From IMG/VR virus record IMGVR_UViG_2681813225_000018: a stretch of 4,189 nucleotides of DNA; one strand, 5' to 3'. Shown here in pieces: positions 1,886 to 2,056 of the stretch (within the stretch, counting starts at the first letter, position 1; every line of letters begins with the position of its first letter). Below the pieces are notes generated by a model, which made no database searches, was not told the origin of the DNA, and saw nothing but the letters and a program-made list of their open reading frames with translations. The DNA comes from a virus. Taxonomy: Duplodnaviria; Heunggongvirae; Uroviricota; Caudoviricetes. Both the position numbers and the translations under genes were made by a program.

Positions 1886-2056
1886 ATGGATAAAGAGCCT
1901 GTTTGCCCTGCCTGTAAGACTCCCTTACAGCTCATCTATCGCCGTTCTCGATCTCAAAATGGCAAGACATACAAACCAAAAAATGCTTCCTGTTTCAGGA
2001 TGCTGATATGTCCTGCCTGTTCTCCCCGGAGGGAAAATACACAAAACGTGCATTAA
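1886..2056 (+). CDS. Small zinc-ribbon protein (56 aa, CPxC...CPxC), putative regulator
   Basis: MDKEPVCPACKTPLQLIYRRSRSQNGKTYKPKNASCFRMLICPACSPRRENTQNVH has two CPAC motifs 31 residues apart and a basic stretch between them. AAGGAG ribosome-binding site (1871-1876) 9 nt upstream of the ATG at 1886. The track ORF starts 8 codons earlier at 1862 without a ribosome-binding site. Transcribed divergently from com-mom. Confidence 0.55.
   Translation: MDKEPVCPACKTPLQLIYRRSRSQNGKTYKPKNASCFRMLICPACSPRRENTQNVH

Follow-up and report, generated by a model that had tools for sequence, protein, structure and literature searches.

An orphan zinc-ribbon gene in a replaceable slot beside com-mom at the right end of a Mu-like prophage

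The question raised by the 4,189-nucleotide stretch of IMG/VR record IMGVR_UViG_2681813225_000018 (hereafter referred to as the window, meaning this whole stretch) is what role is played by a small gene that is transcribed divergently from the modification operon com-mom. In the original prediction, the 56-residue open reading frame (ORF) with two CPxC motifs, herein designated zr56, was proposed as a regulator of com-mom, possibly the trans-activator that phage Mu provides in the form of its C protein. The present analysis indicates that zr56 is a real gene under purifying selection, that it represents an undescribed orphan zinc-ribbon family restricted to Mu-like prophages of Escherichia coli and Salmonella, and that it occupies a fixed slot for which at least one other cargo gene is known from sister prophages. 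On the basis of computed coding selection, restricted distribution, cargo replacement, conservation of promoter and leader, and a C orthologue, we favor, with about even confidence, the reading that zr56 is a lineage-restricted accessory gene in a replaceable cargo slot beside com-mom and not a dedicated part of its control.

The coding sequence and its ribosome-binding site are located as follows.

1886-2056, plus strand: zr56 coding sequence, 56 amino acids plus stop, with ATG at 1886 and TAA at 2054-2056, taken from the ORF list and the sequence.
1871-1876, plus strand: Shine-Dalgarno (SD) sequence AAGGAG, ending 9 nucleotides before the zr56 ATG.

The translation, MDKEPVCPACKTPLQLIYRRSRSQNGKTYKPKNASCFRMLICPACSPRRENTQNVH, carries CPAC motifs at residues 7-10 and 42-45 (Cys residues C7, C10, C42, and C45) and is basic, with 11 K/R against 3 D/E and an isoelectric point of 9.8. 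The description of a basic CPxC...CPxC protein encoded divergently from com-mom was thus borne out by the sequence and by the Pfam assignments of the neighbors, and the ribosome-binding site was likewise confirmed, AAGGAG being found unchanged in every zr-type locus. When 1.84 billion representative proteins were searched exhaustively with HMMER, one distant relative was identified, P0005 of Salmonella enterica (53 amino acids, 47% identical to zr56, E 2.7e-7), and three further Salmonella-type variants were found in IMG/VR. Both lineages keep all four Cys residues together with the core GKTY(K/R)PK..A..F...CP.CSP. Between the E. coli and Salmonella types, the proportion of differing synonymous sites (pS) is 0.78-0.82, at which these sites are saturated, and the proportion of differing nonsynonymous sites (pN) is 0.29-0.32, while within the lineages the ratio of nonsynonymous to synonymous substitution rates (dN/dS) is 0.24-0.56; indels upstream of the ATG break the frame. 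Because synonymous sites are saturated, pN is about 0.3, and the homologue retains the four Cys residues, zr56 was judged to be a gene and not a chance ORF. Occasional decay is seen among natural alleles, L036 and P0003 carrying C7Y and L042 a frameshift.

Two other readings of the coding status were weighed. In RefSeq the 56-residue ORF is absent, and the Prokaryotic Genome Annotation Pipeline (PGAP) calls either a hypothetical protein of 154 amino acids, WP_115801860.1, or a "frameshifted" pseudogene. The 154-residue ORF, equivalent to 1586-2056 of the window (9087-9551 in L003 and 9087-9557 in L002), spans the promoter, the leader, and zr56. An extra G after ATGGAT, present in 133 of 203 E. 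coli records (the +G allele), leads to the 154-residue call in O157 strains, and the window allele, present in the other 70 records, leads to the pseudogene call. If the long protein were the real gene, the window allele would be its frameshifted derivative, as the PGAP calls and the higher frequency of the +G allele would have it, but this is very improbable: the 98 codons upstream of zr56 are not conserved as a frame, E. coli alleles differing there by indels of 1, 8, 3, and 1 nucleotides; the Salmonella type has a stop codon in the 154-residue frame; protein conservation is confined to the core of 53-56 residues; a conserved promoter and covarying RNA hairpins coincide with the upstream part; and the +G allele retains an in-frame ATG 4 nucleotides downstream, from which translation would give MKEPVCPAC.... 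The long ORF was rejected for its unconserved upstream frame and the Salmonella-type stop. The opposite view, that zr56 is a chance ORF in noncoding DNA without any protein product, would fit its very short length, the lack of a family match, and the fact that gene finders seldom call it, but is scarcely credible given saturated synonymous sites against 47% protein identity with four Cys residues kept, the within-lineage dN/dS, and the conservation of SD and ATG; it was rejected on coding selection and on this conservation. The locus is present in about 200 of 5,426 complete E. coli genomes, mostly Shiga toxin-producing E. coli (STEC) including O157:H7, and these genomes misannotate the zr gene, of which the conserved unit is a zinc ribbon of 54-56 residues.

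As to the family, zr56 has no above-threshold match in Pfam, PHROGs, or NCBIfam, the best family score being that for Trm112p, which at 17.2 bits stayed below the cut-off of 22 and was due to the CPxC motif; Pfam matches were listed to E <= 1, and the HMMER filters drop most matches above about E = 0.1. Neither zr56 nor P0005 matches any defense model of PADLOC-DB. The AlphaFold2 (AF2) model of zr56, with a mean predicted local distance difference test (pLDDT) score of 79, shows four beta strands between and around two CxxC knuckles and looks like a zinc ribbon; the zinc-ribbon signature noted from the sequence is upheld by this model and by the invariance of the four Cys residues between lineages, apart from the C7Y alleles. 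In Foldseek searches with this model, matches in PDB were all at E > 1, and the best match in BFVD was at E 0.043, among uncharacterized Cys-rich proteins. A sequence-profile search of PDB gave matches to the CPxC word only, and Rfam at E <= 1 gave nothing in the zr56 region. Profile search and structure prediction thus returned a zinc-ribbon-like model, with no match to a known family or fold. Across protein sets of 5.8 billion and 1.84 billion sequences, IMG/VR, JGI metagenomes, and GenBank phages, members of the zr family were found in E. coli and Salmonella only, and tblastn and blastn against GenBank phages returned only the same Mu-like insert in two Shiga toxin (Stx) phages. From its sequence, zr56 is probably a zinc binder and, as a basic zinc ribbon, probably a binder of nucleic acid.

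The genes that flank zr56, to which the following comparison refers, are listed below.

1271-1471, minus strand: com, 66 amino acids, Pfam Zn_ribbon_Com at 3.3e-12, PGAP coordinates, with ATG at 1471.
580-1317, minus strand: mom, 245 amino acids, Pfam Mom at 5.8e-77.
2095-2340, minus strand: DUF826 gene, Pfam DUF826 at 3.1e-15, convergent with zr56.

Five sister prophage loci from IMG/VR (L048, L052, L054, L056, and L059) share the same com and, as far as the equivalent of about 1863, a nearly identical spacer, beyond which lies an unrelated ORF of 68 amino acids. This alternative cargo, the orphan MDKLTTDPKLQAARIAADITIAAMTS... (MDKLTTDPKLQ...; L048 8039-8245), starts with MDK as does zr56, and its variants differ mainly at third codon positions. 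When L048 was read further, com and mom were found to be nearly identical to those of the window, and the DUF826 block follows the cargo; the DUF826 gene, which lies on the right of either cargo type, delimits the swappable cassette on that side. Since sister prophages keep com-mom and its control region with another gene in the slot, zr56 is replaceable cargo. The notion that com-mom needs zr56 is not supported by these sister prophages, by Mu, which has gin 94 bp upstream of com and no zr gene, or by 21 mom loci of other species, in which no zr homologue was detected by tblastn; in 10 of these 21, the upstream side of com was scanned and carried no divergent CxxC ORF, the neighbors being tail-fiber genes or gin.

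The role once proposed for zr56 is moreover already filled. In the O157 prophage, the gene immediately upstream of that for lysozyme encodes the only protein of the Mor/C family (141 amino acids, PF08765 at 2.8e-32), which is 39% identical to Mu C over the full length (E 4e-35) against 27% to Mor. Because the prophage encodes its own C orthologue, the proposal that zr56 stands in for Mu C as trans-activator is not sustained.

Between com and zr56 lies a spacer of 414 bp (1472-1885), for which symmetric and repeated sites had been noted. These are indeed present (GTAGTAT in three copies, the inverted repeat TATGTAGTAT/ATACTACATA, the hairpin at 1751-1778, a GATC palindrome, and a 72-bp palindrome), but most of what was taken for a control region shared with com-mom consists of the promoter and 5' leader of zr56 itself. 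The elements of the spacer and of the zr56 3' end are as follows.

1515-1539, no strand assigned: GATC palindrome AATCGATCG-N7-CGATCGATT, 87% conserved, 44 bp from the com ATG, resembling the GATC cluster of Mu mom.
1663-1690, plus strand: sigma70-like promoter P(+), TTGACT-16-TAGGAT, from scans of the window and L025.
1696-1742, plus strand: hairpin HP1, comprising GTAGTAT in three copies and the inverted repeat, located where the zr56 transcript is predicted to begin.
1751-1778, no strand assigned: hairpin HP2 of 11 bp, from the terminator scan, predicted -21.5 kcal/mol.
1794-1866, no strand assigned: hairpin HP3, or block B, the 72-bp imperfect palindrome, from folds, pair counts, and identity by segment.
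1855..1826, minus strand: promoter-like site TTTACA-18-TAGGAT within block B, found in the window and L025.
1878-1896, plus strand: hairpin HP4, UCUUUAUC-AUG-GAUAAAGA, predicted -7.9 kcal/mol, present in the RNAalifold consensus.
2066-2085, no strand assigned: GC-rich hairpin CCGGCAGG-GAAA-CCTGCCGG, predicted -18.3 kcal/mol, between the zr56 and DUF826 stops.

Conservation between the E. coli and Salmonella types is uneven along the locus, amounting to 47% identity in the 5' part of com, 87% in the GATC palindrome and its tail (1515-1552), 38% in the variable spacer (1553-1640), 86% in block B (1795-1860), 88% in the SD region (1861-1885), and 54% in the zr ORF. The hexamers of P(+) are conserved between the window and L025 while the sequence between them has diverged, and L041, which carries unrelated sequence at this position, has a better promoter, TTGACG-16-TATAAT, at equal distance from HP1. 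P(+) was taken as a real promoter, from which the zr56 transcript would begin at about 1697, in the 5' arm of HP1. A GATC site overlaps the -10 hexamer of P(+) (TAGGATC, 1685-1691). The 414-bp spacer holds six of the 13 GATC sites in the 4,189-bp window, two of them forming the palindrome at 1515-1539.

The leader of about 190 nucleotides folds at -71 kcal/mol (z score -6.3), and four hairpins were identified in it by RNAalifold on nine sequences. In the consensus, pairing holds in 96.4% of cells, whereas sliding the partners gives no more than 48%. Eight pairs are changed on both sides, against 3.9 +/- 1.3 in shuffles, none of 500 shuffles reaching eight; with nine sequences, a small and related sample, this covariation is supportive and not conclusive. 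One-sided substitutions mostly leave G.U pairs on the plus strand. In HP1, the GTAGTAT repeats noted in the window do exist, in three copies (1696-1716), but as a tandem array they are an expansion of the 5' arm specific to the window allele, relatives having about 1.5 copies owing to an 8-bp indel. HP2 occurs with six different stem sequences, all of which pair, and four of its 11 pairs are changed on both sides; with its T-rich tail on the minus strand, it resembles a terminator that might shield com-mom from leftward read-through. Block B, with its 86% identity against 54% for the ORFs, contains promoter-like hexamers on both strands and an invariant GGTCTCCT that is complementary to the zr56 SD. 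In HP4, the start codon lies in a 3-nucleotide loop, and the sole natural stem substitution replaces C by U, so that pairing on the plus strand is preserved as G.U. A unit made of ACTACATAAAGG, an HP2-type covarying hairpin, and GCATCAATGCTTTACTTCG (about 1735-1815 in the window) is tandemly duplicated in L039, L041, L054, and L056.

Downstream of the ORF, the hairpin at 2066-2085 is likely to be a bidirectional terminator, although it fails a simple terminator scan; in the Salmonella homologue, the stop is immediately followed by another terminator, of canonical form. With promoter, leader, ORF, and terminator hairpin all found, the zr56 unit appears to be self-contained.

If zr56 is an accessory gene, its expression may be pictured as follows. 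Transcription would start at about 1697 from P(+) (1663-1690), with a Dam site in its -10 region, and would produce a structured leader of about 190 nucleotides, in which a hairpin at the 5' terminus precedes a covarying one, a long palindromic one, and a last one with the AUG in its loop. The 56-residue ORF would be translated from this single-gene unit, transcription would terminate at the hairpin of 2066-2085, and the basic beta-hairpin between the zinc knuckles would bind nucleic acid or a partner protein, the target lying beyond what the locus reveals. In this scheme we infer the transcript ends, zinc binding, nucleic acid binding, and the accessory role itself. The region between the tail-fiber/gin block and com-mom would then represent an expression slot, with a conserved promoter and leader serving varied small genes; such slots often hold host-interaction or anti-defense functions.

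Several observations weigh against the accessory role. Each zr homologue found is separated by about 390-414 bp from a com gene of opposite orientation, and each lies in the right end of a Mu-like prophage, so the co-occurrence expected for a regulator was observed and no widespread occurrence apart from com-mom came to light. The order com, spacer, zr persists even where a C5 cytosine methyltransferase replaces mom, as in Salmonella L025 and E. coli 90-3040. This persistent linkage could mean a functional tie and not shared ancestry, and in so narrow a family synteny does not distinguish between these. HP1 has arms that are invariant in sequence and not merely in pairing, as for a protein-binding site. 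The sequence YCCGCAAARCCYGCC, common to the lys- and I-type late promoters of the prophage 30 nucleotides upstream of -10 (L027 10575-10589 and 18493-18507), is probably the site of the C orthologue, yet this candidate C-box has no match within three mismatches anywhere in the window and therefore none upstream of com, which leaves the activator and promoter of com-mom unplaced. Finally, literature searches for Sp18 small RNAs and transcript maps returned nothing on the zr56 locus, and no transcript, protein, or zinc-binding data for it came to light in the material searched.

A rival view is that zr56 does regulate the adjacent com-mom or com-methyltransferase operon, or autoregulates, by binding spacer DNA. 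Its sites would be, for example, the TATGTAGT/ACTACATA arms or the GATC palindrome, and it would act as a repressor, an insulator, or a co-activator alongside C, Dam, and OxyR. Such a modulating role is possible but doubtful. A basic zinc ribbon, invariant inverted-repeat arms at its own transcript start, the constant neighborhood of divergent com including the com-C5-methyltransferase variants, the GATC enrichment of the spacer, and the lack of a C-box upstream of com would all agree with it; however, sister prophages retain the control region and com-mom with another gene in the zr slot, Mu and the 21 mom loci of other species do without a homologue, a C orthologue is present, zr56 has no similarity to known families of DNA-binding regulators, and natural alleles include C7Y, a frameshift, and the start-shifting +G in 133 of 203 E. 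coli records. The spacing on the com side departs from Mu, since alignment places the GATC cluster 43 nucleotides from the com ATG here and 70 nucleotides in Mu, which is too close here for a C site of the Mu kind and a promoter to fit downstream. The com-mom promoter in this phage lineage resembles neither the Mu arrangement nor the C-box promoters of the phage itself. In Mu, the known layers of mom control are C, Dam/OxyR, Fis, momP2, and Com, and methyltransferases replace mom in other Mu-like phages (PMC3378877, PMC3299994); no zr56-like gene is mentioned in these two papers. Should zr56 or its leader RNA act on the modification operon, an extra phage-encoded layer would be added to a very heavily regulated gene.

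Control at the RNA level would be a different matter. The leftward RNA of about 78 nucleotides that would run from TTTACA-18-TAGGAT (1855..1826) to HP2, taken with the SD-complementary GGTCTCCT, suggests from sequence an antisense-controlled switch. In its specific form, zr56 would be the protein half of an antisense RNA-controlled module of the type I toxin-antitoxin kind, in which the leftward RNA pairs with the leader and frees GGUCUCCU, which sequesters the SD. We consider this decidedly unlikely. The minus-strand site is kept in both lineages with a diverged spacer between its hexamers, and also in L039 and L041, where the plus-strand -35-like TTTACT is lost; the minus strand of HP2 has a U-rich tail; an 8-bp GGUCUCCU/AGGAGAUC pairing is predicted if HP3 is unformed; and the leader is longer than the ORF, with the AUG in a hairpin. 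Against these points, the palindrome in which the hexamers lie would by itself lead one to expect promoter-like matches on either strand, several variants have a weak U-tract after HP2, the one-sided substitutions that give G.U pairs on the plus strand would leave C.A mismatches in a minus-strand RNA, and zr56 is not hydrophobic and the region has no Rfam family match. A broader proposal, also unlikely, is that spacer and cargo together form an undescribed RNA-level switch beside the modification operon, combining a Dam-sensitive promoter, a leader of four hairpins in which HP3 alternates with the anti-SD pairing, an antisense RNA from the opposite strand, and feedback on the spacer by zr56 as a nucleic acid-binding effector; if true, it would time or insulate the expression of toxic com-mom or com-methyltransferase. 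The accessory-gene reading remains the one that we prefer.

In L025 (6398-7610) and L068 (1-221), the gene after com codes for a C5 cytosine DNA methyltransferase (PF00145, 5.7e-41) in place of mom, with spacer and zr kept; this methyltransferase of Salmonella and E. coli prophages may be under Com control. After the zr terminator, L025 (8362-9274) carries three small co-directional ORFs of 100, 81, and 122 amino acids, the last two overlapping by start and stop; none has a Pfam match, and the 122-residue product gives a weak PADLOC hit to PD-T4-7 (E 0.0025).

The window itself comes from an Sp18-type Mu-like prophage that sits in a lambdoid J gene, and it represents the right end of that prophage. 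Bases 1-451 encode the C-terminus of the lambdoid host-specificity protein J, 98% identical to vhsJ of phage 2851, and the end of the Mu-like prophage begins at about 452. Because the prophage end abuts the J C-terminus, the Mu-like phage must have transposed into the J gene of another prophage, and the same annotation is given on LC727881. Within the prophage end, three TTTGATAC repeats at 469, 491, and 526 are possibly transposase-binding sites. To the right of zr56, the genes for DUF826, DUF1378, and a DUF6645/SASA esterase by Pfam are all on the minus strand and form a block between gin and the cargo slot (2095-4127 in the window; 9596-12171 in L002), which we take to be of a kind known from Stx phages. 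The esterase ORF of the window (2613-4127) begins at an internal ATG, the full gene in L002 being about 2 kb. In complete E. coli genomes, the block runs on into the gin, tail-fiber, and baseplate genes of the Mu-like prophage.

Among known systems, the Com protein of Mu (Zn_ribbon_Com, PF10122), the translational activator of mom, is likewise a small basic four-Cys zinc ribbon of about 60 amino acids, encoded at a Mu-type right end and adjoining the modification gene. In contrast to the neighboring com product, which scores 3.3e-12, zr56 has no Zn_ribbon_Com match; the knuckles are spaced by 31 residues in zr56 against about 16 in Com, and BLASTP of the resident Com against zr56 gives E 0.016 over 13 residues, indicating that zr56 is not a Com paralogue. 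Com binds an mRNA hairpin and opens a structure that inhibits translation, to which the zr56 AUG within a hairpin offers an analogy only. The idea that the zr56 leader has a Com target in common with the initiation region of mom was tried and rejected, the local alignment scoring 18 when shuffled sequences averaged 15.9 and reached as much as 27.

The Ogr/Delta zinc-finger late activators of P2 and P4 (PF04606), of which the Cys layout had seemed reminiscent, are also small phage proteins, in which a CxxC pair and another Cys pair enclose a beta region of basic character. The resemblance did not hold: zr56 has no PF04606 match with Pfam listed to E = 1, its pattern is CxxC-N31-CxxC against CxxC-N22-CxxxxC of Ogr/Delta, and its host element is Mu-like, with an activator of the Mor/C type. 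The late activators of the Mu C/Mor family (PF08765) have the role proposed for zr56, activation of the mom promoter; zr56 itself has no PF08765 match and is unrelated in fold and family, and the C orthologue of the prophage stands at the canonical position upstream of lys. Lar/RalR of the Rac prophage, which with the antisense RNA RalA forms a type I toxin-antitoxin pair linked to restriction evasion, is comparable as a small basic Cys-rich prophage protein with a possible cis antisense RNA. It differs in that zr56 has no Lar_restr_allev Pfam match, all "restriction alleviation protein" matches in BFVD are at E > 2, and the antisense RNA at zr56 is only a candidate, as is any toxicity.

With respect to the DNA arrangement, momP2 of Mu (PMC3378877), which overlaps Pmom, is also a rightward promoter upstream of mom, pointing away from it, in a GATC-rich stretch. 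The zr56 promoter differs in being about 190 bp from com and in serving a long leader and a real gene, the gin-com spacer of Mu being 94 bp and the P2 product not known. The closest parallel in organization is provided by phage morons and accessory slots, in which a compact promoter-gene-terminator unit between conserved modules is replaced in sister phages. At zr56, however, the promoter and the leader belong to the conserved slot and not to the cargo, and the leader is unusually long and structured.

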